Origin: Massilia eurypsychrophila
GTDB lineage: Bacteria; Pseudomonadota; Gammaproteobacteria; Burkholderiales; Burkholderiaceae_D
Direction: 5' to 3'
DNA: 24,000 nt
Assembly: GCF_002760655.1 (NCBI RefSeq)
Contig: NZ_PDOC01000003.1
Span: forward strand, 200,840-224,839
The position numbers were made by a program, and so were the translations under genes. The first letter of the stretch is position 1. Every line of letters begins with the position of its first letter. This document shows, piece after piece, positions 3,495 through 22,764 of this stretch. A model generated the notes under the pieces. The model was given only the letters and a program-made list of their open reading frames with translations. It was not told where the DNA came from and made no database searches.

Positions 3495-6146
3495 CTATTT
3501 TGCGTTGGCCGTTACCCAAGCGTCGATCGCGGGCAAGCGTTCGGCGCGTACCTTGACGCGGTCACGGATGCCGGCAATCGCGGTGTCGGCGTCGCGCCGT
3601 GAACCGGCAGCGAGGTTGGCGCCCGCATAGGCCTCGAGCTTGGCGATGGTTGCCGGGTTCGACGAACCGGCCGCCAGACGCGGGAAAAAGCGGCTGCGCG
3701 AGGTGGCGTCGACCCGCTCGTTCACCTTGGCCGCGTTCGCCAGAGCGAAGTCGAATGCCAGCTCAGGATGGCGCTGCGATACCTGCGCCAGCATCGCCGC
3801 GCTGTTGGTCACGCCAGGTTCGTCCGTCATCGCCAGGTCCAGCGCGCGCCGCGCCAGCGCCGGGTCGGCGGGCGAAGCGAGCAGCTCGTACAAGCCGTCC
3901 TTGATCATCGGCGACTTCTCGGCCTTGGCGGCGCGGTGCAGGTCGTCCCACGCGGCGCTGTCGGCGCGCGTTGCCACCACCGCCAGCACGGTCTTGCGCA
4001 GTGCGGCCGGCAGCGCCTGCGGGTCGGACGCTTGCGCCGCATAGCGCCGGCGTGCTTCGGCGATCGTGGCGGCGTCGCCAAGTTCGCTGAGCGTCTGGAT
4101 CAGGCCCGTGCGCAAGGTGGCGACGGTGGCGTTTTCGCCGGCGCGGGCGTCCCAGCCGACCTGCTTCATGACCGGCGCCAGGCGCTTGACCGCATACGCG
4201 TCGAAGCGCTGCTGGCGCTGGCGGTCGCCCGCGTAGTGATCGTGGATGGTCCCGAACACGTCGGCGATCTTGCCCCACACCTGGGGATCGGCGCCCGGCG
4301 TGGCGGCGTTGGCCAGCGCGAGGAAGTCGGACGCCGGCTGCAGCCCGGCCACGCCAAGCGACCAGCTGTCGGCCAGCAGGCCCATTTGATCGATGGGGGC
4401 CAGGGCGCCAAAGCCGGCGGCGAGCTCGCCGAAATGTTTCGGCGCGTACAGCGTGCGATAGTAGCCGCTCTGGCCGGCGTTCACGATGACCGCGCCGCAG
4501 CCAGGCACGCTGACGCTCGCCTTGCCGTTCGATACCAGCGTGCGCACCTGGCGGCTGGTGCCGGCCGCCTGCAATGTCACCGGCACGCGCCAGCGCAGCG
4601 GCTTCTTGTCGGGCTGGTCGCGGCTGAATTCCGACTGCGTCAGTTCGACGCGCGTGCTGCTGCCGACGCAGTCGGCGCTCGCCACGCGGATCAGCGGCAC
4701 GCCCGGCTGCAGCGTGAAGTCGTGGGCGATCGCGGTGACCGGCTTGCCGGCGGCGCGTTCGATCTGGCGCCACAGGTCGCCCGAGACCGTGTTCTTGTAG
4801 GCGTGTTCTCGCATGTATGCGCGCACGCCGTTGCGCCAGGCCTGCTCGCCGACGTAGTTCTCCATCATGCGGATCACTGCTTCGCCTTTCAGGTAGGTGA
4901 TATCGTCGAACGCCTGGCTGGCCTGTTCGACCGTCTCCACGTGCTGCACCACCGGGTGGGTGGTGGCGACCGAATCGCGCTCCATCGCGGCCTCGCGCAC
5001 GCCGACCGCATTGAGCCTGGTATTCCATTCCGGATGCAGGCGCTCGGACATGCGGCTTTCCATCCATGAGGCGAAGCCCTCGTTAAGCCACAGGTCGTCC
5101 CACCACTGCATCGTCACCAGGTTGCCGAACCACTGGTGCGCCATTTCGTGCGCGGCGGTGACGAACACCGCCTGCTTGTCGCCCTGCGTTGAAATCGCCG
5201 GGTCGAGCAGGATCGCGTATTCGAACGTAAAGATCGCCCCCCAGTTCTCCATCGCGCTGAAGAACTGGCTGCGGCCCGGCGCGGCGATGTTGTCCAGCTT
5301 GGGCAGCGGGTAGTGCACGCCGAAGTAGCGGTTGAATTCGACCAGCAGCGATTTGGACGCGTCGAGCGCGAACGCGGCCTGCGCGGCGCGGCCCTTCGGC
5401 GTGACCACGCCCAGTTCTGTACCGTTCACTTTTGCCGTCACGCGGTCGAATTCGCCCAGTCCGAAGAACAGCAGATAGGTCGACATCTTCGGCGTTTGGG
5501 CGAACCTGACCAGGCTGCGGCCGTCGGCCAGCGCGGTCGTTTTCGCCACCGGCATATTACTGACCGCCATCTGGCCGGCGGGGATCGCCGCTTCCAGCGT
5601 GAAGCTGGCCTTGTAGGCCGGCTCGTCCCAGGAAGGAATCATGCGGCGCGCGTCCGAGTTCTCGAACTGCGTGTAGAGCGCGCGCTTCTTGCCGTCGGCG
5701 CCGTCGTAATCGAGCGAGAACAACCCAACGGCTTGCTGCCCGATCAGGCCCGTGTAGTCGAGCGCCAGGCGGTAGCGGCCCGGCGCGATCGGCCTGGCGA
5801 AGCGGAACGTCGCGGTCTGCGCGTCGGCATCGACGCTGGTGGTTGCCGTCATCGGCGCGCCGCCTGCGCCGGCGGCCAGCGTAACGCGGCTGAACGCCAG
5901 GTCGGCGGCGTTGAGCGTGATCGAGTCGGTCGGCGTCAGCACGTCGAGCGTGATGGTGACCTTGGCGGCGAAAGTGGAGCGGGCGGCGTCGGGCGTGATC
6001 GACACGTCGTAGTGGGCAGGGCGCGCGGTGCGCGGCAGCTGGGTGGTGGCGAGCGCGGTCGGCGCCGGCGCGGGCGCCGCCATGAGCGGCTGAGCCGACA
6101 GGCCGGCCAGTGCAAGTACTGCTGCTGAAATCAGGCTGCGATGCAT
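3495..6146 (-). CDS. pepN: M1-family zinc aminopeptidase N with N-terminal signal peptide
   Basis: 883 aa. The exopeptidase motif is SAMENWG (GAMEN-type). The zinc site is HEMAHQWFGNLVTMQWWDDLWLNEGFA (HEXXH-X18-E). The signal-like N-terminus is MHRSLISAAVLALAGLSAQPLMAAP. AAGGA SD lies upstream of ATG 6146. Confidence 0.9.
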   Translation of the reverse strand: MHRSLISAAVLALAGLSAQPLMAAPAPAPTALATTQLPRTARPAHYDVSITPDAARSTFAAKVTITLDVLTPTDSITLNAADLAFSRVTLAAGAGGAPMTATTSVDADAQTATFRFARPIAPGRYRLALDYTGLIGQQAVGLFSLDYDGADGKKRALYTQFENSDARRMIPSWDEPAYKASFTLEAAIPAGQMAVSNMPVAKTTALADGRSLVRFAQTPKMSTYLLFFGLGEFDRVTAKVNGTELGVVTPKGRAAQAAFALDASKSLLVEFNRYFGVHYPLPKLDNIAAPGRSQFFSAMENWGAIFTFEYAILLDPAISTQGDKQAVFVTAAHEMAHQWFGNLVTMQWWDDLWLNEGFASWMESRMSERLHPEWNTRLNAVGVREAAMERDSVATTHPVVQHVETVEQASQAFDDITYLKGEAVIRMMENYVGEQAWRNGVRAYMREHAYKNTVSGDLWRQIERAAGKPVTAIAHDFTLQPGVPLIRVASADCVGSSTRVELTQSEFSRDQPDKKPLRWRVPVTLQAAGTSRQVRTLVSNGKASVSVPGCGAVIVNAGQSGYYRTLYAPKHFGELAAGFGALAPIDQMGLLADSWSLGVAGLQPASDFLALANAATPGADPQVWGKIADVFGTIHDHYAGDRQRQQRFDAYAVKRLAPVMKQVGWDARAGENATVATLRTGLIQTLSELGDAATIAEARRRYAAQASDPQALPAALRKTVLAVVATRADSAAWDDLHRAAKAEKSPMIKDGLYELLASPADPALARRALDLAMTDEPGVTNSAAMLAQVSQRHPELAFDFALANAAKVNERVDATSRSRFFPRLAAGSSNPATIAKLEAYAGANLAAGSRRDADTAIAGIRDRVKVRAERLPAIDAWVTANAK

Positions 6147-7830: not shown

Positions 7831-12721
<4,891 letters not shown>

Positions 12722-12735
<14 letters not shown>

Positions 12736-14740
12736 TATCCTCGTTTTTTGGGAGTGGAAAAGGTGGCCGGATGGTGCTTCCGGCTCGTGCGATAGGGGTG
12801 TTCTGTAGTGATGCGAACAGCAATGCGGACATCGCCTGCGCCGGCTCCGGCTCGCCCAGCAGCGCGCCCTGGAACTGATCGCAGCCGGCCGCGGCGAGCA
12901 CCTCGAGCTGCGCTTCGGTGTCGACGCCGAGCGCGCGCACCGACAGGCCGAGCGCGCGCGCCAGGTGGATGATCGCCGCGACCATGTCGGCGCCGCCATC
13001 GGCGCCGATGTCGCGCACGAAAGCGCCATCGATCTTGAGGGCGTCGAAAGGCAGGTCGCGCAAGATGGTCAGGGACGCGCCGGCGCTGCCGAAATCGTCG
13101 ACCGCCAGGCGCACGCCGGCCGCGCGCACCGCGTCGAGCGCCGGCTTGACGTCGCCGGCGCCGACCAGCAGGCGTTCGGCAATCTCAAGTTCGAGCAGTC
13201 CAGCATCGATGCGGCATGTGGCCAGGTGCGCGGCGACCCGTTCGGGCAAGTTCGAGTGAATATGCATGGACCCCAGGTTGACCGACATGACCAGCGCCGG
13301 CAGCCCCGCCTTGTGCCATAGCGCGGCCTGGGCGCAGGCCGCGCCGATGGTCCAGTCGCCGACCTCGTCGAGCAGCTTGCGGTCGGTCACCCGGTGCAGG
13401 AACTGCGGCGCGGCCAGCAGGCCCTCGCGCGGATGGCGCCAGTACAGCAGCGCCTCGACGCCGGACAGCGCGCGGGTGCGCACGTCGGCGTGCGACTGGT
13501 ACTGCAGCGCCAGTTCACCGTTGTCGAGCGCCTGCCGCAGCTCGGCCGCCCAGCGCGCGTGTTCGACTTCGCGCGCGTTGAGCTCCTCGCGGAAGTATTC
13601 GATGCTGCCGCGGCGGTGCTGCTTGGCGTGGTACATGGCCGTGTTTGCATTGCGCAGCACGATGGCGGCGCTGGCGCCGTCCTGCGGATACAGGCCGATG
13701 CCGATCGACGACGAGGTGAAGATATGCTGGCCGGCGATCTCGAACGGCTGCGCGTTGGCCTGCTCGATCTTGCGCGCCACCAGGGCCGCGTTGGCGGAGG
13801 CGCCGGCGCCCTCGAGCAGCACGACGAATTCGTCGCCGCCGGGCCGCGCCGCCACGTCAGACACCCGCACTGCGGCCTGCAGGCGCCCGGCGAACAGGCG
13901 CAGCAGCGCGTCGCCGGCTTCGTGGCCGAGCAGGTCGTTGATGCGCTTGAAGCGGTCGAGGTCGAGGAACAGCACGGCGAACTCGCTGTGATGGCGCTCG
14001 GCGTAGGCGACGGCGTGTTCGAGCTGCTGGATCAGCGCGCGGCGGTTGAGCAGGCCGGTGAGGGCGTCGCGGATCGACAGCTCGTGGGCGCGCGTTTCGG
14101 CCAGCTTGCGCTCGGCCACCTCGAGCTCGAGTTCGGCGTTGATGCGTTCGAGGTCCTGCAGGCGCTGCACCCGCAGGTCCTGGTACAGCGCCGACAGTTC
14201 TTCGGTCTTTGCGACCAGCTCGAGGTTGTTGCGGGTCAGGGCGACGAACACGGCGACCTTGGTTTGCAGGATCTGCGGGATCACCGGGGTAAACAAGTAG
14301 TCGACTGCGCCTTTCTGGTAAGCCTGCAGGCGGTGCATTTCGTCGGCGTAGTGGGCGGTGATGAAGATGATCGGCACGGCCGCCGAGCGCGGATGCGAGT
14401 GGATCGCGTCGGCGGTTTCAAAACCGTCCATGCCCGGCATGTTCACGTCGAGCAGAATGACGGCGAATTCGTGCATCAGCACCTGGCGCAGCGCCTCGTG
14501 GCCTGAAGTGGCGGTGATGAGCTCGTACTGGCCGTCGGGCGCCGGTTGATTCAGCAGGCTCTCTAGCGCGAACAGGCTGGCCGGATCATCGTTGACTAGT
14601 AGGACTTTAGGGATCTGCACGTCGGGACAGGTCGGTTGGGGAAATCGTGTGGCGTTAATCGTTATATCGCGGACGACAGAAAAATAATCTTGCTGCCCGT
14701 TAGGGTAAGCATTATATTGTCGTTCGGAAACTAAGTGCAA
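12722..14740 (-). CDS. Response regulator with REC, coiled coil, GGDEF and EAL domains
   Basis: REC (KVLLVNDD...[14 protein letters not shown]...[10 protein letters not shown]). GGDEF with RVSD I-site five residues upstream ([18 protein letters not shown]). EAL domain ([41 protein letters not shown]). The track start is a TTG at 14740 inside AT-rich DNA; the in-frame GTG at 14620 (VQIPKVLLV) is an equally plausible start. Neither has a clear SD. Confidence 0.88.
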
Positions 14741-15055
14741 TTCTTATGCTAACAAAATAGCAACCCGGGAGCAAAGTTGGGGAAGGTTATCCGAAAAAAA
14801 CTTTCCCCGGCGCACGGCAGAAACGCGCCCGCCGTCAATTTTTGTGGCATTTAGCGCACAGTCAGACGACCTACCAATTGTCTCATTTTCGAGGCAACCC
14901 ATGGTAGTTACCGGCGCGATTCCTGCTACTTGGAAAATGGCAAAAAAATAATTTTTCGTTGAAGCATTTGTCGATTGAGTTTTGGTAATTAGTCAACTAC
15001 GATCACGTATTGATTCAAATTTGCGATGTCGCAGTGAGCGGGCGGGAGCAGCGAA

Positions 15056-15793
15056 ATGATTGAGTTAAGTCAGTTGATGAGGTTGGTCGATGCAACTTCC
15101 GAAGTGGCCTGGAGCGGTGCGCTTTTCGATATCGCGCATCAAATGGGCTTTGGCGGTGTCATGTACGCCGCATTGTTGTCAAAGCACGCGAACCTCGAGC
15201 ATCCATTTCTGTATAGCAATTATCCGAAAGCTTGGCGCGATCACTATGATGCGGCCAAGCTGCACAGCGTCGACCCGACCATTCGCCATTGCATGAACAG
15301 CGTGCTGCCGCTGATCTGGGAGCCCGACACCTTCCGCCACGCTGACAATCATAATTTGTACGATGAGTCGCGCCAGTTCGTCAAACGGTCGGGCATCACG
15401 TTCCCGATGCACGGTTGCAATGGCGAGATCGGCATGATCAGCTTTGCCACCGAGGAAATGGATGCGGAAGAGTTCAGCGCCCACCTGACCCACTACATGG
15501 CCGATTTGTCGCTGGTGCGCGATTACGCGTTCGACTCGTCCCTCAAGTTCATCAAGGCGCGCAGCCACGCTGAACCGGTGCCGCACCTGACCAAGCGCGA
15601 ACTGGAAGTGATTAAATGGGTGATGGCCGGCAAATCCTCGTGGGAAATCTCACGCATTACCGACTGTGCCGAAGCGACCATCAATTTTCACATTTCGAAT
15701 ATCCGCCAGAAGTTCAACGTCAATACCCGTCAGCAGGCGCTCGTCAAGGCGATCGCCCTCGGCATCATCACTCCAGAAGATCCACATCGCTGA
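15056..15793 (+). CDS. LuxR-family AHL-binding transcriptional regulator, LasR-like
   Basis: The autoinducer-binding domain carries SNYPKAWRDHYDAAKLHSVDPTIRHCMNSVLPLIWEP. I recall this as close to LasR [37 protein letters not shown]. The C-terminal LuxR HTH is LTKRELEVIKWVMAGKSSWEISRITDCAEATINFHISNIRQKFNV. GGGAG SD lies 9 nt before ATG 15056. Confidence 0.9.
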   Translation: MIELSQLMRLVDATSEVAWSGALFDIAHQMGFGGVMYAALLSKHANLEHPFLYSNYPKAWRDHYDAAKLHSVDPTIRHCMNSVLPLIWEPDTFRHADNHNLYDESRQFVKRSGITFPMHGCNGEIGMISFATEEMDAEEFSAHLTHYMADLSLVRDYAFDSSLKFIKARSHAEPVPHLTKRELEVIKWVMAGKSSWEISRITDCAEATINFHISNIRQKFNVNTRQQALVKAIALGIITPEDPHR

Positions 15794-16049
15794 CCTTGCC
15801 GTTGACGTACAGCTTGACCAGCAGCGCGACCGGAGGGGGAACCCCGAGGCCGGTCTCGAAGCGGCTGCCGCTCGACTGGGTCACGCCGAAGCGGGCCCAG
15901 AATGTGGCCTGGCTCTCGCGCTTGCTGATGCGAAATTGCCGCAATCCCATCTGACCCGGCCCGCGCAGCGGTTGGTTGGCCGCATCGTTGGCGGCGAACG
16001 ACACCGCGTCGCTGACAGCCGGCGCCTGCAGATTAAAGTCCTGGTCCAT
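15768..16049 (-). CDS. rsaL: RsaL-like small HTH repressor, convergent with the LuxR-family gene
   Basis: 93 aa with a strong GGAGGGG SD before ATG 16049. The core KRESQATFWARFGVTQSSGSRFETGLGVPPPVALLVKLYVNGKVSDVDL matches my recollection of the RsaL signature (RESQ.TFW.RFG..QS.GSRFE.G..P.P.ALL..Y..G). The position and orientation relative to luxR are canonical for rsaL. Its 3' end overlaps the luxR 3' end by 26 nt. Confidence 0.7.
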   Translation of the reverse strand: MDQDFNLQAPAVSDAVSFAANDAANQPLRGPGQMGLRQFRISKRESQATFWARFGVTQSSGSRFETGLGVPPPVALLVKLYVNGKVSDVDLLE

Positions 16050-16104
16050 GTCATCCCCTCCGCAAATCGATGGGTCCAGTATTCCACCTCGCGCCTTGCT
16101 TTTG

Positions 16105-16124
16105 AGCTATCACATCTACTAGTT
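16105..16124. promoter_or_regulatory. lux/las-box-like 20-mer (CT-N12-AG) in the rsaL-divergent promoter
   Basis: AGCTATCACATCTACTAGTT has the NNCT-N12-AGNN frame. By my count it shares 16/20 positions with the P. aeruginosa lasI box as I remember it (ATCTATCTCATTTGCTAGTT). It lies 56 nt upstream of the rsaL-like ATG. Confidence 0.45.
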
Positions 16125-16138
16125 ATGCAGATCACATA
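16124..16138. promoter_or_regulatory. RsaL-operator-like palindrome TATG-N7-CATA
   Basis: TATGCAGATCACATA directly abuts the lux-box-like element. It has the same half-sites and spacing as the RsaL site I recall in the lasI promoter (TATGAAATTTGCATA). The arms are short, so chance occurrence is not excluded. Confidence 0.4.
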
Positions 16139-16319
16139 AGTAAAGCTCCTGCGGTCATCGGCCGTCTTTTTCGCGCTGTTGATCTTGATTGTCGGACGCT
16201 ACGGGGTTTTCCGTCGGAAAAAATTGCCGCACGAGATGTGTTTGCCGTCGTCATTAATAGTATATTGACAGCACGGCGGCGCTGCAGTGCCAGTCCGCTT
16301 CGGGACAAGGTTTTCGACG

Positions 16320-19295
16320 ATGACGCAAGCGATTTCGGGCAGCATGGGCAGCACGGTGACCGGCGGCGGACCGGCGTGGCTGCGGTTGCGAGCGGCCGGC
16401 CTGATTTTCTCGGCGCTGGTCGGTGCCGGGCTGTATACAGTCGCTGCCAACACCGTCGAGGGCGATGCGCGCCAGCGTTTCAACGGCATCGCGCGCATCG
16501 CCCAGTCGGCCCTGGCGGCGCGCCTGGCCACCTTCAATGACCTGGTGCGCGGCACCACCGCCTTGTTCGAGGCGTCCGACGATCCGGTCACGCGGCTGCA
16601 GTTTCACCGCTACGTCGCCGCGCTCGACGTGCCGCGCAATTTCCCCGAGGTCGACCTGCTGTCGTACGCCGCCAGCGTCGACGACGCCGGGCGCGACGCC
16701 TTCGTCGCCCGGGTGCGGGCCGACCGCAGCCTGGCGCCGGGCGGCTATCCGGCGTTCGACATCCTGCCTGCCGGCCGGCGCGAGCGCTACGAAGTGCTCA
16801 CCTTCGTCGAGCCGGCGCGCCACTTCAGCCGCTACTTCGGCGCCGACATCGCGCAAAACCCGGCGATCGCCGAGGCGCTGGCGCAGTCGCGCGACACCGG
16901 GCAGCTCAGTTCCGGCGTGCCGATCATGTTCGACGCGCCGTCGCCGCACATCGGCCTTGGCATCGGCCGGCCGGTGTACCGCAAAGGCGTGCCGCTGACC
17001 GATGCCGCGGCCAGGCGCGCCGCCTTCCTCGGCATGGTCGGCGTCGAGTTCAGCGTGCCAGGCCTGGCGCAGGGCGTACTGGGGCAGGTCGGCATGCCCG
17101 GCCTGCGCGTGGCGCTGTACGCCGCCGGCAGCGCCGCGGCGGACCAGCGCGCGCTGGCAATTGGCCGCGGCGACCGGCTGCTGTTCGGCGCAGGTCCGCT
17201 GCGCGACGCCAGTTTCGAGGCGGTGCTGCCGGTCGACTTCAACGGCAGTCTGTGGAAGGCGCGCTTCACGCTGCCGCGCTCCGACCTGTACAGCCAGTTC
17301 GACCGCGCCTTTCCCTTTCTCGCGCTGGCCATCGGGGTGGTGGTGGGCCTGCTGGTGTATGCATTCTTCTTCACCCTGTTCTGGTCGCGTCGGGTGGCGA
17401 TCGCCCAGCGGCTGCTGCTCGACACGGTGCTCGACAGCGTCGAGGCGCATGTCTACATGAAGGATCGCGAGCGGCGCTTCACCTACATCAACGCGCGCAC
17501 CGCCGAAGCGATGGGGAAAGCGCCGCAGGAGGTGATCGGCAAGTTCGATCGCGACGTGCTGCCGGCGGCGCTGGCCGACGCCTACTGGGAGCAGGACCGC
17601 AGCGTGTTCGACAACGGCGTATCCAGCGCCGGGCAGCACCAGTTCACCCGGCTCGATGGCCAGGTGCGCCAGTTCTGGACTGTGAAAGTGCCGGTGATGG
17701 AAGCGGGCGAAGTGGCCGCGGTGATCGGCCTGTCGACCGACGTCACCGAGCTGCATGAACTGAAGGCGCAGGCCGATGCCGCCAGCCTGGCCAAGAGTAA
17801 CTTCCTGTCGAACATGAGCCATGAGATCCGCACGCCGATGAACAGCATCATCGGCATGACGCACCTGGCGCTCAAGTCGGCCGCCACGCCGAAGCAGCGC
17901 GACTACCTCGAAAAGATCTACCACTCCAGCCAGCACCTGCTCGGCATCATCAACGACATCCTCGATTTTTCCAAGATCGAAGCCGGCAAGCTGGATCTGG
18001 AAGTGATCGACTTCAGCGTCGCCACGCTGATGGAAAACATTGCGCACCAGCTGGGCGAAGCGGCCAGCTGCCGCCGCCTGGCGCTTGAATTCGAGCTGGC
18101 GCCCGGCCTGCCGCGCCAACTGCGCGGCGACCCGCTGCGGCTCGAGCAGGTGCTGCTCAACTTTACCGGCAACGCCATCAAGTTCTCGGAGGATGGCGTG
18201 GTGCGCATCCACGCCGTCGCGCTCGAGGACACCGAGCACGATGCGCTGGTGCGCTTCGAGGTGCGCGACAACGGCATCGGCATGACCGGCGCCGAAGTGG
18301 GCGAGTTGTTCAAGTCGTTCCACCAGGCCGACCCGTCGACCACCCGCAAGTACGGCGGCACCGGGCTGGGACTGGTGATCAGCAAGCAGCTGGTCGAACT
18401 GATGGGCGGCAGCGTCGGCGTCGACAGCGCGCCCGGCGTCGGCAGCACCTTCTGGTTCACCGCGCGCCTTGGCAAGGGCGTCAGGTTCATGCGCGCCGGG
18501 CCGGCGCCGGCGCCGCGCGAAGTGCTCGACCAGATCGCCGGCGCGGCCATCCTGCTGGTCGAGGACAACGTCTTCAGCCAGCAGGTCGGCCAGGAGCTGC
18601 TGGAAGAAGCCAGCGCCACCGTCGTCGTCGCCTGCAACGGCAAGGAAGCGGTCGACCTGATGCTGCGGCGCTGCTTCGACTGCGTGCTGATGGACCTGCA
18701 GATGCCGGTGATGGACGGCTTCGAGACGACCCGCATGATCCGCTCCGATCCGCGCCTGCGCGAGGCGGTGGTGATCGCCCTGACGGCCAACGCCGGCCGC
18801 GACGACCGGGCGCGGGCGCTGGCGGCCGGCATGGACGAATTTGTCAGCAAGCCGACTTCGCCGAACCAGCTGTTCGAGGTGATCGCCCGCTGCCTGCGCG
18901 CGCACGCTGCGCCGGCCGCCGCGCCCCTTGCGTGCGAGGCGGCGCCGCCGCTGTTCGACATGGCGGCGCTGGCGCTGACCTTCGGCGCCAACCCGCAGAA
19001 GATGCGCAAGTACGCCTTCATGTTCCTCGATTCTGCCGGCGACGGCCTGGCCGTCGTCGGCGAGGCGCTGGCGCGCGCCGACATCGAGCGCGCCGCCGAT
19101 ACCGGGCACCGGATGAAATCGGCCGCGCGCGCGGTCGGCGCGATGGAGTTTGCCCAGCTGTGCCAGCAGCTCGAACAGCTGCGCATCGGCGGCTCGGTGG
19201 CCGAAGCGAGTCTGTTGCTGGGGCGCATGGTGGCACTGCGCGCGCTGCTCGCCGAGCACATGGCCAGCGAACTGGCCGAACCGGCGTCCGGATGA
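16320..19295 (+). CDS. Unorthodox hybrid sensor kinase: TM, periplasmic CHASE, TM, PAS, HisKA, HATPase_c, REC, Hpt
   Basis: CHASE-like periplasmic region (VTRLQFHRYVAALDV...ERYEVLTFVEPARHF...GADIAQNPAIAEALAQSRDTGQ). TM segment FPFLALAIGVVVGLLVYAFFFTLFW. PAS (VEAHVYMKDRERRFTYINARTAEAMG). H-box SNFLSNMSHEIRTPMNS. G2 box GGTGLGLVISKQLVELMGG. REC (ILLVEDN...VLMDLQMPVMDGF). Hpt (GHRMKSAARAVGA). The start is uncertain: GTG 16287, ATG 16320 or ATG 16344. Confidence 0.9.
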   Translation: MTQAISGSMGSTVTGGGPAWLRLRAAGLIFSALVGAGLYTVAANTVEGDARQRFNGIARIAQSALAARLATFNDLVRGTTALFEASDDPVTRLQFHRYVAALDVPRNFPEVDLLSYAASVDDAGRDAFVARVRADRSLAPGGYPAFDILPAGRRERYEVLTFVEPARHFSRYFGADIAQNPAIAEALAQSRDTGQLSSGVPIMFDAPSPHIGLGIGRPVYRKGVPLTDAAARRAAFLGMVGVEFSVPGLAQGVLGQVGMPGLRVALYAAGSAAADQRALAIGRGDRLLFGAGPLRDASFEAVLPVDFNGSLWKARFTLPRSDLYSQFDRAFPFLALAIGVVVGLLVYAFFFTLFWSRRVAIAQRLLLDTVLDSVEAHVYMKDRERRFTYINARTAEAMGKAPQEVIGKFDRDVLPAALADAYWEQDRSVFDNGVSSAGQHQFTRLDGQVRQFWTVKVPVMEAGEVAAVIGLSTDVTELHELKAQADAASLAKSNFLSNMSHEIRTPMNSIIGMTHLALKSAATPKQRDYLEKIYHSSQHLLGIINDILDFSKIEAGKLDLEVIDFSVATLMENIAHQLGEAASCRRLALEFELAPGLPRQLRGDPLRLEQVLLNFTGNAIKFSEDGVVRIHAVALEDTEHDALVRFEVRDNGIGMTGAEVGELFKSFHQADPSTTRKYGGTGLGLVISKQLVELMGGSVGVDSAPGVGSTFWFTARLGKGVRFMRAGPAPAPREVLDQIAGAAILLVEDNVFSQQVGQELLEEASATVVVACNGKEAVDLMLRRCFDCVLMDLQMPVMDGFETTRMIRSDPRLREAVVIALTANAGRDDRARALAAGMDEFVSKPTSPNQLFEVIARCLRAHAAPAAAPLACEAAPPLFDMAALALTFGANPQKMRKYAFMFLDSAGDGLAVVGEALARADIERAADTGHRMKSAARAVGAMEFAQLCQQLEQLRIGGSVAEASLLLGRMVALRALLAEHMASELAEPASG

Positions 19296-19368: not shown

Positions 19369-22300
19369 ATGGCATCTCCCGTCTCGCCCGGACTCCTGAT
19401 CCTGCACGGTAACCAGCTCGAACAATTGCGCGCCGCGCTGTTCGGCTGGCTGCGCAATCATCCGCTCGCGCCGCTCGAGTCGGAGATCATCCTGGTGCAG
19501 TCGAACGGCGTGGCCGAATGGCTGAAGATCGCGCTGGCCGAGGAAACGGGCGTGTGCGCCGCCACCCGCGTGGCGCTGCCGGCGCGCTTTCTGTGGGAAG
19601 CCTACCGCGGCATGCTCGGCGCCGAGCGGGTGCCGAAACGCTCGCCGTTCGACAAGGCGCCCCTGACGTGGCGCCTGATGCGCCTGTTGCCGGCGCTGCT
19701 GTCAAACGACGGCTTCGCGCCGCTGCGCCACTTTCTCGGCGACGGCGACCCGGAACGCCGGCTGCAGCTGGCCGAACGCCTGTCCGACCTGTTCGACCAG
19801 TACCAGGTGTACCGCGCCGACTGGCTCGACGACTGGGCGGCGGGGCGCGACGTGCTGCGCAACGCGCGCGGTGAGGCGGCGCCGCTGCCGGTCGAACAAT
19901 TGTGGCAGGCGCAGCTCTGGCGCGCCGTCAACGACAGCCTGCCGGCGCAGCTGCGCCAGTCCGGGCGCGCCACCATCCACAGCGAATTCGTACACGCCAG
20001 CGAGAACGGCGCGCTGCCTGCGGCCAGGCTGCCGCGCCGCGTCGTCGTGTTCGGCATCTCGGCGCTGCCGTACCAGACCTTGCAGGCGGTGGCGGCGCTA
20101 TCGCGCCACTGCCAGGTGCTGCTGGCGGTGCCCAATCCGTGCCAGTTCTACTGGGGCGACATCATCGAAGGGCACGAGCTGCTCAAGGCGCGCCACCGGC
20201 GCCAGCAGCCGCGTGGCGGCATCGACCTGTCGCACGTGCCGATCGAAGACATGCACTCGCACAGCCATCCGCTGCTGGCGAGCTGGGGCCGGCAAGGGCG
20301 CGACTTTGTCCGCATGCTCGACGAATTCGACAGCGCCGCCGAGGGCCGCTTCGAGAACATGCGGGTCGACCTGTTCAGCGAAGGTGAGGGCGACACCTTG
20401 CTCGGCCAGGTGCAGGCCGCGGTGCGCGACCTGCTGCCGCTGGCGGAGCATGCGCGCCTGGCGCCCGATCCAAGCGATCGCTCGATCGAATTTCATGTCA
20501 CCCACAGCGTGCAGCGCGAAGTCGAGGTGCTGCACGACCAGCTGCTGTCGTGGTTTGCCGCCGGCGACGCGGACGGCGCGCCGGCATTGCGCCCGCGCGA
20601 CGTGGTCGTGATGGTGCCCGACATCGATACGTTTTCGGCGGCGATCCATGCCGTCTTCGAGCAGCACAAGCGCAGCGACGCGCGCTTCATCCCGTTCGAG
20701 ATCGGCGACGTCAAGGATCGCAGCGTCAACCCGCTGCTGGTGGCGCTCGAGTGGCTGCTGCGCCTGCCGCAGCAGCGTTGCCGCCAGAGCGAGGTGCGCG
20801 ACCTGCTCGACGTGCCGGCGCTGGCGGCCCGCTTCGGCCTCGAGGACGAAGACCTGGCCACCCTCGGCCAGTGGATCGAGGGCGCCAGCGTGCGCTGGGG
20901 ACTGGACCAGCAGCACCGCGATGGCCTGGGCCTCGGTTCGGCCGGCGAGCAGAATGCCTGGATCTTCGGGGTGCGGCGCATGCTGCTCGGTTACGCCAGC
21001 GGCGCCGGCGCCAGCTTCGCCGGCATCGAGCCGTACGCCGAAGTGGGCGGGCTCGATGCCGCGCTGGCCGGCTCGCTGGCGCAGCTGATCGAGACGCTGC
21101 TGGCGTGGCGCGCCAGCCTGGCGCAGTCGCGCACCCCGACCGAATGGGGCGAGCAGGCGCGCGCTCTGCTGGCGGCGTTTTTCGACGGTTCGGCAGAGGG
21201 CGACCGCCTCACGCTGGCGCAACTGCGCGAAGCGCTGCAGAACTGGCTCGAGACGTGCGACAACGCCGAATTTGCCGAACCGGTGCCGCTGGCGGTGCTG
21301 CGCGAAGCGTGGCTTGGCGCGCTCGACGAGCCGACCTTGAATCACCAGTTCGTCTCCGGCGGCGTGACCTTCTGCAGCCTGATGCCGATGCGCGCGGTGC
21401 CGTTTCGCGTGGTGTGCCTGCTTGGCATGAACGACGGCGACTTTCCGCGCCGCGCGCGCCAGGCCGATTTCGACCTGCTCGCGCTGCCCGGCATGGCGCG
21501 ACCGGGCGACCGCTCGCGCCGCGACGACGACCGCTACCTGATGCTCGAAGCGCTGCTGGCCGCGCGCGACAAGCTGTACGTCAGCTGGGTCGGGCGCAAC
21601 GTGCGCGACAACAGCGAGCAGCCGGCCTCGGTGCTGGTGTCGCAGCTGCGCGACTACCTGAAGGCCGGCTGGCAGCTCGACCTCGATGCAATGACCACCG
21701 AGCACGCGCTGCAGCCGTTCAGCCGCCGCTATTTTGAACAGGGCGGCTTGCCGACCTACGCCGGCGAATGGCGCGCCGCCCACGCCGCCGCCGCCGCCGG
21801 CGACGACGCGCCGTTGCCGCCGTTCGAACTCGATGGCGAATACCGCCTGAAGCTTGCTGAACTGGCCAAGTTCCTCAAGCAGCCGGCGCGCTACTTTTTC
21901 CAGCGCCGGCTTGGCGTCTGGTTCGCCGACGCCGATGCGCTGGGACAGGACGAGGAGCCGTTCTCGTTCAATGCGCTGGAGCGCTACCTGCTCGAAGACA
22001 GCCTGCTCGACGACGGCGGCGCGCCGGAAGCACTAAGCGAAGTGCGCGCCAGCCTGGCTGCCCGCGCCGAACGGCTCGGACGCGAAGGCGTGCTGCCGAT
22101 CGGCCTGATCGGCCGCAAGTGGGAAGAGCAGCTGATCGAAGGCCTGGTGCCGGTGCGCACCGCCTGGCTGACCCTGGGCGCGCGTTTTCCGGAGCAGGCG
22201 CCCAAGCTCCCCATCAGCCTGCGCTTCGGCGGCATCGAGCTCGATGACTGGATCGACAAGCTGCGCACCAGCGAAGTCGGCGCCGCGTGGCTGATGCAGA

Positions 22301-22764
22301 TCTCCTCGAAGGTGCTCGACAAGAAGGGCGCGGCGCGCGGCGACAAACTGATCGGCGCCTGGCTGCGCCAGCTGGCCGCCGCCGCCGCCGGCCATCCGGT
22401 GACCGGCTACCTGGTCGCGCGCGACGCGATCGTCACGATGGCGCCGCTCGATACGGACCACTCGCGCGCGGTGCTGGCCGGCCTGGTTGCGCTGTGGCGC
22501 CAGAACCTCGACCAGCCCTTGCCGGTCGCCTGCAAGACGGCGCTGGCCTTGCTGCGCAATGGCGACGCGCGCGCCACCTACGACGGCAGCTTCGAGATCG
22601 GCGGCGAAGTGCAGGACCTGTGCCTGGCGCGCCTGTGGCCCGACTTTGCCGCCCTCACTGCTGGCGGCGCGTGGCTGCATACGGCGCAGTCGCTGTATGG
22701 CCCGCTGGCCGACTGGCTCGATGCGCACGTCGTCATCGCCCCGCTCGACAAGGAGCAGGCATGA
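19369..22764 (+). CDS. recC: Exodeoxyribonuclease V gamma subunit
   Basis: 1131 aa with a RecC-typical N-terminus (LLILHGNQLEQLRAALFGWL...ILVQSNGVAEWLKIALAEE). Length is appropriate. It sits immediately upstream of recB with an ATGA stop/start overlap. Confidence 0.92.
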   Translation: MASPVSPGLLILHGNQLEQLRAALFGWLRNHPLAPLESEIILVQSNGVAEWLKIALAEETGVCAATRVALPARFLWEAYRGMLGAERVPKRSPFDKAPLTWRLMRLLPALLSNDGFAPLRHFLGDGDPERRLQLAERLSDLFDQYQVYRADWLDDWAAGRDVLRNARGEAAPLPVEQLWQAQLWRAVNDSLPAQLRQSGRATIHSEFVHASENGALPAARLPRRVVVFGISALPYQTLQAVAALSRHCQVLLAVPNPCQFYWGDIIEGHELLKARHRRQQPRGGIDLSHVPIEDMHSHSHPLLASWGRQGRDFVRMLDEFDSAAEGRFENMRVDLFSEGEGDTLLGQVQAAVRDLLPLAEHARLAPDPSDRSIEFHVTHSVQREVEVLHDQLLSWFAAGDADGAPALRPRDVVVMVPDIDTFSAAIHAVFEQHKRSDARFIPFEIGDVKDRSVNPLLVALEWLLRLPQQRCRQSEVRDLLDVPALAARFGLEDEDLATLGQWIEGASVRWGLDQQHRDGLGLGSAGEQNAWIFGVRRMLLGYASGAGASFAGIEPYAEVGGLDAALAGSLAQLIETLLAWRASLAQSRTPTEWGEQARALLAAFFDGSAEGDRLTLAQLREALQNWLETCDNAEFAEPVPLAVLREAWLGALDEPTLNHQFVSGGVTFCSLMPMRAVPFRVVCLLGMNDGDFPRRARQADFDLLALPGMARPGDRSRRDDDRYLMLEALLAARDKLYVSWVGRNVRDNSEQPASVLVSQLRDYLKAGWQLDLDAMTTEHALQPFSRRYFEQGGLPTYAGEWRAAHAAAAAGDDAPLPPFELDGEYRLKLAELAKFLKQPARYFFQRRLGVWFADADALGQDEEPFSFNALERYLLEDSLLDDGGAPEALSEVRASLAARAERLGREGVLPIGLIGRKWEEQLIEGLVPVRTAWLTLGARFPEQAPKLPISLRFGGIELDDWIDKLRTSEVGAAWLMQISSKVLDKKGAARGDKLIGAWLRQLAAAAAGHPVTGYLVARDAIVTMAPLDTDHSRAVLAGLVALWRQNLDQPLPVACKTALALLRNGDARATYDGSFEIGGEVQDLCLARLWPDFAALTAGGAWLHTAQSLYGPLADWLDAHVVIAPLDKEQA

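Follow-up and report, generated by a model that had tools for sequence, protein, structure and literature searches.

The luxR-rsaL locus and its missing luxI

We analysed a stretch of 24,000 nucleotides (nt) from Massilia eurypsychrophila (contig NZ_PDOC01000003.1, positions 200,840 to 224,839; called the window below), in which the intergenic region between an rsaL-like repressor gene and a sensor kinase gene carries operator motifs of the kind known from the lasR-rsaL-lasI quorum-sensing locus of Pseudomonas aeruginosa. The luxR-family receptor gene of this locus (15056-15793, + strand; Pfam Autoind_bind and GerE) is intact and encodes a LasR-like protein of 245 amino acids (aa). Its best relative of solved structure is LasR (E 5.7e-55), and the LasR ligand-contact positions Y56, W60, D73, T75, W88 and S129 are kept, with Y93 changed to F. 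Convergent to luxR lies the rsaL-like gene (15768-16049, - strand), which codes for a helix-turn-helix (HTH) protein of 93 aa (Pfam PF22495, 5.9e-21); its start codon at 16047-16049 reads CAT on the + strand, and the 3' ends of the two genes overlap by 26 nt (15768-15793), the same overlap being seen in relatives. P. aeruginosa RsaL (5j2y, PA1431) matches the RsaL-like protein with an E of 1e-14. The residues R20, Q27, G35, Q38, S42 and R43, essential for DNA binding by RsaL (PMC5314801), align to R40, Q47, G55, Q58, S62 and R63 of the window protein, and S37 aligns to T57. A cognate RsaL with DNA-contact residues is hence encoded near the RsaL-type operator described below. The next gene on the + strand (16320-19295), about 271-273 nt beyond the rsaL start, encodes a hybrid kinase with CHASE, PAS, HisKA, HATPase, REC and Hpt domains (Pfam).

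A complete las-type circuit comprises luxR, rsaL and luxI. At this locus the convergent luxR and rsaL are present and intact, and the divergent luxI-family gene is not in the window: tblastn with the LuxI of a related locus (L003, see below) at E up to 10 detected neither luxI nor a fragment of it in the 24 kb. No luxI pseudogene or fragment was found in 16139-16319 by tblastn (E up to 10), six-frame reading, blastn-short, or global and local alignment against shuffled sequences. No luxI adjoins luxR here, as is the case for LuxR solos. An Rfam scan of 15900-16450 gave no match.

A lux box and an RsaL-type palindrome

Read on the + strand, the intergenic region runs ...TTTTG AGCTATCACATCTACTAGTT ATGCAGATCACATA AGTAAAGCTCC... 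The first of these elements, AGCTATCACATCTACTAGTT (16105-16124, unstranded), is a predicted LuxR-type operator (lux or las box) of the form CT-N12-AG, with CT at 16107-16108, 12 nt, and AG at 16121-16122. It shares 16 of 20 positions with the published LasR operator lasO, ATCTATCTCATTTGCTAGTT (bioRxiv 10.64898/2026.05.13.724834), an identity reached in none of 60 shuffles, and is the sole 20-mer of the window with at least 14 of 20 positions identical to lasO on either strand. When up to three mismatches were allowed, no further lux box was found in the window. Directly abutting it, with one T common to both, is TATGCAGATCACATA (16124-16138, unstranded), a palindrome TATG-N7-CATA of the RsaL type, which we call box A. 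The published RsaL site is TATGAAATTTGCATA, with the consensus TATGnAAnTTnCATA (PMC5314801). Box A agrees with the site in 10 of 15 positions on the top strand and in 12 of 15 on the bottom strand (TATGCAAATTTCATA), and by direct reading fits 10 of the 12 specified positions of the consensus. Its TATG and CATA arms are both intact, and it is in the arms that Gln38 and Arg43 of RsaL make their base-specific contacts, to the A and the G of TATG (PMC5314801). The pattern TATG-N7-CATA occurs once in the 24 kb, against an expectation of 0.02.

A first-pass annotation had recognised both elements and their abutment by likeness to the lasI box and the RsaL box. The motif sequences that it had used proved correct on comparison with the published ones, and the flanking genes that it had named (a LasR-like LuxR, an RsaL-like HTH protein and a CHASE-PAS kinase) are those described above. 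These comparisons support a genuine lux box and RsaL-type operator of a las-type luxR-rsaL module, to which LuxR and RsaL would bind. Box A occupies the side of the lux box on which relatives have luxI, but no luxI-family gene follows it in the window.

Related loci with and without luxI

Species-representative genomes scanned with the LuxR protein yielded 14 loci, and an RsaL-alignment scan of metagenomes yielded 80 more. Among 92 rsaL loci, 65 have luxI, directly downstream of the same lux box, in agreement with the first-pass statement that such an architecture drives luxI in known systems; 20 are without luxI despite at least 900 nt of room, and the contigs of the other seven do not extend far enough for a verdict. 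Whether luxI is present or not, nearly all related loci have the lux box 48-92 nt upstream of the rsaL ATG, the outliers being L072 (29 nt) and L075 and L086 (about 175 nt). A LuxI of 195 aa is encoded between rsaL and the same CHASE kinase in L002-L006 and most other loci, and the luxI open reading frame (ORF) of L003 belongs to PF00765 (2.5e-36). The sub-clade containing the window comprises 21 loci (the window, L001-L005 and L017-L031), 19 of them luxI-bearing. The closest relative by backbone is Massilia sp. TWR1-2-2 (L003), whose RecC and kinase are 97% and 91% identical to those of the window. Because the CHASE kinase follows luxI in 23 luxI-bearing relatives, its place in this gene order appears ancestral, and from this comparison the adjacency of kinase and lux box in the window is inherited synteny, exposed by the deletion of luxI. 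The opposite course, an insertion of luxI in the relatives, was considered and rejected, given that luxI with the same promoter architecture is found clade-wide, including distant loci of Undibacterium and Methylophilaceae. Two metagenome contigs from the Joint Genome Institute (JGI; L015 and L016) are 99.5-99.7% identical to the window, with an identical intergenic region (273 nt). Since these independent metagenomes carry the same allele, it is evidently natural and no assembly artefact. As a separate observation, the luxI homologue of L009 (5190-5758), a Burkholderiaceae metagenome-assembled genome, is matched as two segments, joined at residue 101/102 and overlapping at nt 5489, that are apparently in different frames, which may reflect a frameshift (pseudogene or assembly error).

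The rsaL/luxI promoter of the relatives

The lasI and rsaL genes of P. aeruginosa are both activated from one lux box and both repressed by RsaL bound beside it (PMC10746200). The luxI-bearing relatives of the window show a constant order of AGTATT, 21 nt, the 20-nt lux box, about 16 nt, TTGCATGAtTCT, a second RsaL-type palindrome (box B), about 25 nt with the ribosome-binding site, and the luxI ATG. Box B, ATGCACGTTGCATAAC, begins about 29 nt past the lux box; every luxI-bearing locus listed has it as (T/C)ATGC-N5-GCATA(A/C), and the same loci conserve a hexamer GATTCT at nt 22-27 counted from the lux box. On the rsaL side, AGTATT (16078-16083 in the window, - strand; AATACT on the rsaL strand) is invariant in all 21 loci of the sub-clade, as CAGTATT in 20 and AAGTATT in L030. 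Its distance from the edge of the lux box is exactly 21 nt by direct count in the window and L002, and the register is the same in the other 19. AATACT on the rsaL side and GATTCT on the luxI side thereby mirror each other, 21 nt from the lux box. From this conservation and spacing we infer that each is the -10 element of a class II LuxR-dependent promoter, the two promoters diverging from a lux box centred near -43.5, with AATACT as the element of rsaL. A class I luxI promoter (-35 TTGCAT and -10 in the right arm of box B, with 18-20 nt spacing) was also considered and would leave the conservation of GATTCT unexplained. We prefer the symmetric class II arrangement; the choice is immaterial for the window, from which both candidate core promoters are missing.

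The 16-nt spacer of the sub-clade is itself an RsaL-type palindrome, box A, of the form TATGCA-N5-(C)ATA, with a perfect consensus match in L018. In the 19 luxI-bearing loci of the sub-clade it combines conserved arms with a variable centre, as would be expected for the operator of a dimeric HTH protein. Two tandem palindromes, A and B, with conserved arms and variable centres are accordingly seen in L002-L005 and L017-L031 (for example L003 11064-11110). The bases around the right arm of box A were also found to covary as a short inverted repeat (for example GCC-ATATTT-GGC and TCCA-ATATT-TGGA).

The deletion scar

Alignment of the window with its relatives extends from rsaL to the end of box A and perhaps as far as about 16151 (GCTCCT facing GATTCT), and resumes at about 16208. 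In between, about 68 nt of filler (16139-16207, unstranded) stand where the relatives have some 650-740 bp, and this deletion scar replaces the luxI core promoter, box B, the ribosome-binding site, the 195-aa luxI ORF and the terminator. Compared with L003 and L004, the window lacks the -35-like TTGCAT, GATTCT, box B, the ribosome-binding site, the luxI ORF and the GC-rich hairpin after luxI. At the position of GATTCT it reads GCTCCT, with the key A at position 2 lost. The hairpin after luxI has a 14-bp stem and a folding z-score of -3.4 in L005, and GC stems of 8-9 bp in L002-L004; the filler has a z-score of 0.08 and holds only a weak 6-bp hairpin with a T-run at 16151-16175. No significant similarity was detected between the filler and the relatives' promoters, luxI genes or post-luxI spacers, or the relic promoter of L001, against which it is indistinguishable from shuffled sequence. 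A scan for sigma-70-like sites on the + strand of 16050-16320 found none. The hexamers CATAAG and TAAGTA, put forward in the first-pass annotation as -10-like, differ from the conserved promoter elements of the relatives.

Locus L001, also without luxI, retains promoter sequence as far as the site of the luxI ATG, GATTCT included, and its box B is degenerate (GGCTAGCCTTGAATAAC). On the tree, the LuxR of L001 is the sister of the window LuxR, and by direct reading the rsaL-proximal intergenic regions of the two share about 90% identity. These data would fit one ancestral loss, with further erosion in the lineage of the window, as well as two separate deletions.

Selection on luxR and rsaL and the recurrence of luxI-less loci

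Between the window and L001, the ratio of non-synonymous to synonymous substitution rates (dN/dS) is 0.16 for luxR, 0.23 for rsaL and 0.09 for the HTH part of RsaL, and luxI-bearing pairs (0.11-0.17) fall in the same range as this luxI-less pair. Judged from these ratios, the intact luxR and rsaL are under purifying selection. On a neighbour-joining tree of LuxR, luxI-less loci appear in at least four places. Three of these groups are the window with L015, L016 and L001; L033; and L089 with L093. The fourth is large, diversified and drawn from many metagenomes (L044, L067, L076, L080-L085, L088, L090, L095 and L096); L074 is also counted with this clade. All luxI-less loci retain the lux box 48-71 nt upstream of rsaL. 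The simplest explanation of this retention would be a need for activation of rsaL by LuxR with N-acyl homoserine lactone (AHL), and box A of the window would most simply be explained as a site of RsaL autorepression. Apart from this, L089 (3760-3916) and L093 possess an intact relic luxI promoter (lux box, TTGCATGA, TCATGCGCCGCGCATA) that is not followed by luxI and is directed into the 3' end of a convergent DUF488-like ORF, beside an S9 prolyl-oligopeptidase-like gene.

The presumed control region of the CHASE kinase

The kinase start is the conserved ATG at 16320 (ATGACGCAAGC, conserved against L003 with its kinase of 91% aa identity), rather than the GTG at 16287. Upstream of it, a conserved non-coding block (16218-16267, + strand) of the form AAAAAATTGCC...GATGTGTTTGCC...GTCATTAATAGTATATTG contains the -10-like TAGTAT/TATATT. 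This block is kept in 14 of 14 aligned loci, with luxI present or not, about 55-100 nt upstream of the kinase ATG, and is presumably the kinase promoter or an operator for some regulator. The centre of the lux box (about 16114.5) lies about 160 nt upstream of the -10-like element or the start that the block implies, which exceeds the reach of activators of this kind when they act directly, as class I or as class II. In L076 a gene in the opposite orientation, for a 706-aa S9 peptidase-like protein, lies between rsaL and the CHASE kinase, and the kinase there must consequently be an independent unit. On the best reading of these comparisons, the kinase is a syntenic neighbour outside the quorum-sensing module, with a promoter region of its own. 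The rsaL-kinase gap of about 2.3 kb seen in L076 recurs in the other kinase-linked members of the large luxI-less clade.

A receptor with its repressor and their shared operator

We consider it likely that the two boxes remain as the upstream half of a former las-type bidirectional rsaL/luxI promoter-operator, and that this half would now serve rsaL in a LuxR-RsaL pair that is locally without its synthase. The ancestral locus would have consisted of luxR (+), rsaL (-) and luxI (+) between a gene for a REC-GGDEF-EAL protein and the CHASE hybrid kinase and recC, with a single lux box that activated rsaL leftward and luxI rightward, and with RsaL palindromes that repressed both. The cassette in this genome would have lost not only luxI but also its core promoter, ribosome-binding site and terminator and, with box B, the main RsaL operator. 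Left over would be the lux box, box A as an auxiliary RsaL operator, and the -10 on the rsaL side. The remaining parts would be exactly those needed for an rsaL transcription that is activated by AHL-LuxR and autorepressed by RsaL. The locus would then be a receptor-plus-brake pair without a local synthase, probably listening to AHL made elsewhere, and the deletion alone would have brought the kinase within 180 nt of the lux box. Several points weigh against this interpretation. The -10 assignments at all these loci are drawn from conservation and geometry, and chance, or a function in the rightward direction, could account for the retention of box A. With the strong hairpin after luxI gone, any residual rightward transcription would reach the kinase. 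Part of the divergence between the window and L001 on which the dN/dS values are based may predate the loss of luxI. Finally, 'solo' refers to this locus: the luxI search covered the 24 kb, and a luxI elsewhere in the genome is possible.

The first-pass annotation had instead described a preserved promoter, apparently rewired to the kinase. With GATTCT and the second palindrome ATGCACGTTGCATAAC, both conserved in luxI-bearing loci, missing from the window, the promoter is not preserved as a whole, and the rewiring is unsupported because the core promoter is gone, the kinase has been the downstream neighbour all along, and it has its own upstream block. On that model, the lux-box promoter would remain active in the rightward direction and, now that luxI and the terminator are deleted, transcribe the CHASE kinase under AHL/LuxR activation and RsaL repression. 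The intact lux box and RsaL-type palindrome would agree with this, as would the replacement of the strong hairpin by the weak one with its T-run (z 0.08 against -3.4 in L005), and in L001, the second luxI-less allele, the promoter region with its GATTCT is likewise joined to the kinase upstream block. However, the window has GCTCCT in place of GATTCT and has lost box B and the -35-like TTGCAT, no promoter-like site was found on the + strand of 16050-16320, and about 160 nt separate the lux box centre from the -10-like element of the kinase. The conserved upstream block is retained as in luxI-bearing relatives, the adjacency of the kinase is ancestral synteny, and in loci of the L076 type, with the S9 peptidase gene intervening, the kinase must be transcribed on its own. 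We regard rightward firing as unlikely. A broader proposal, in which the deletion of luxI and terminator fused an AHL/LuxR-responsive, RsaL-braked region to the kinase leader, the receptor-and-brake pair without synthase is a recurrent, selected architecture in the Oxalobacteraceae, and the luxI-less cassette of this genome passes from species to species by allele replacement, seems quite unlikely; if the fusion were real, eavesdropped AHL would tune the expression of a sensor for extracellular ligands.

It is very unlikely, in our judgement, that the whole module is a decaying relic whose boxes, luxR and rsaL are functionless and merely not yet eroded. The luxI-side promoter is indeed lost or eroded here and degenerate in L001 (box B GGCTAGCCTTGAATAAC), and the window LuxR sits on a long branch of the tree. 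Yet both ORFs are of full length with their ligand-contact and DNA-contact residues conserved, the dN/dS between the luxI-less alleles (0.16 for luxR, 0.09 for the HTH part of RsaL) is in the range of luxI-bearing pairs, and the lux box and the AGTATT on the rsaL side are unchanged. In addition, a large and diversified clade, found in many metagenomes, consists of luxR-rsaL pairs that have a lux box and no luxI.

Comparison with known systems

The order and orientation R (+), rsaL (-) and, in the relatives, I (+) are those of lasR-rsaL-lasI in P. aeruginosa, and here too a TATG-N7-CATA palindrome of the RsaL type lies on the luxI side of a lux box that is placed for two divergent promoters. 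Unlike P. aeruginosa, the window has no luxI and its host belongs to the Oxalobacteraceae (Massilia/Telluria-like). The palindrome adjoins the lux box with a gap of 0 nt, compared to 7 nt at P. aeruginosa lasI, and the sub-clade has two such palindromes (box A, and box B at about +29) where P. aeruginosa has one and the window box A only.

LuxR solos that arose through loss of the cognate synthase have been described, for example SdiA (Sabag-Daigle and Ahmer 2012, as cited in PMC10134790). Like solos of the SdiA type, the window locus keeps an AHL-type receptor with conserved ligand-binding residues, apparently under purifying selection, with no adjoining luxI. In contrast to them, the RsaL repressor and the lux box/RsaL operator are also kept here, and the deletion scar and luxI-bearing sister alleles can be seen. 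An association of rsaM with LuxR solos has been reported as topology type 6 (PMC10710839), and both cases have in common that a quorum-sensing repressor gene of the intergenic type is kept beside luxR without a neighbouring luxI. RsaM, however, is unrelated to RsaL and is no DNA-binding HTH protein, and PMC10710839 contains no analysis of relic promoters. The las-type lux box with RsaL operator and a LuxR left without an adjoining synthase are thus kinds already known. It is modestly new that several lineages hold on to the dedicated repressor RsaL and the shared operator as well as the receptor, and that the sub-clade has two tandem RsaL-type palindromes.

The locus shows a canonical quorum-sensing circuit being dismantled: synthase and core promoter are lost, while receptor, repressor and shared operator appear to stay under selection, and the outcome would be a listener with a built-in brake. 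The 65 luxI-bearing and 20 luxI-less rsaL loci, the latter in at least four clades, offer a system for asking what RsaL does without signal synthesis. For annotation they advise caution, in that a well-preserved operator beside a new downstream gene can be a deletion scar and not a regulatory rewiring.

Flanking genes and the divergence of the luxR-rsaL island

The module is flanked by the REC-GGDEF-EAL gene (12722-14740, - strand; Pfam) on the luxR side and, beyond the CHASE kinase, by recC (19369-22764, + strand; Pfam search). The luxR-rsaL region forms a sharply bounded island (14500-16300), inside which nucleotide identity to L003 drops to 49-87%, from 92-98% in both flanks. Within this divergent island the window is closer to L001 than to L003, and the synonymous divergence (dS) of luxR against L003 is 1.47. 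This pattern suggests allele replacement by recombination, or ancient alleles resembling pherotypes. Further out, a gene on the - strand (7831-13029; Pfam) encodes a hybrid kinase of 1732 aa with multiple HAMP domains, GAF and HisKA-HATPase domains and three receiver domains; at 97-98% identity to its relatives, it is conserved far above the adjoining quorum-sensing module.

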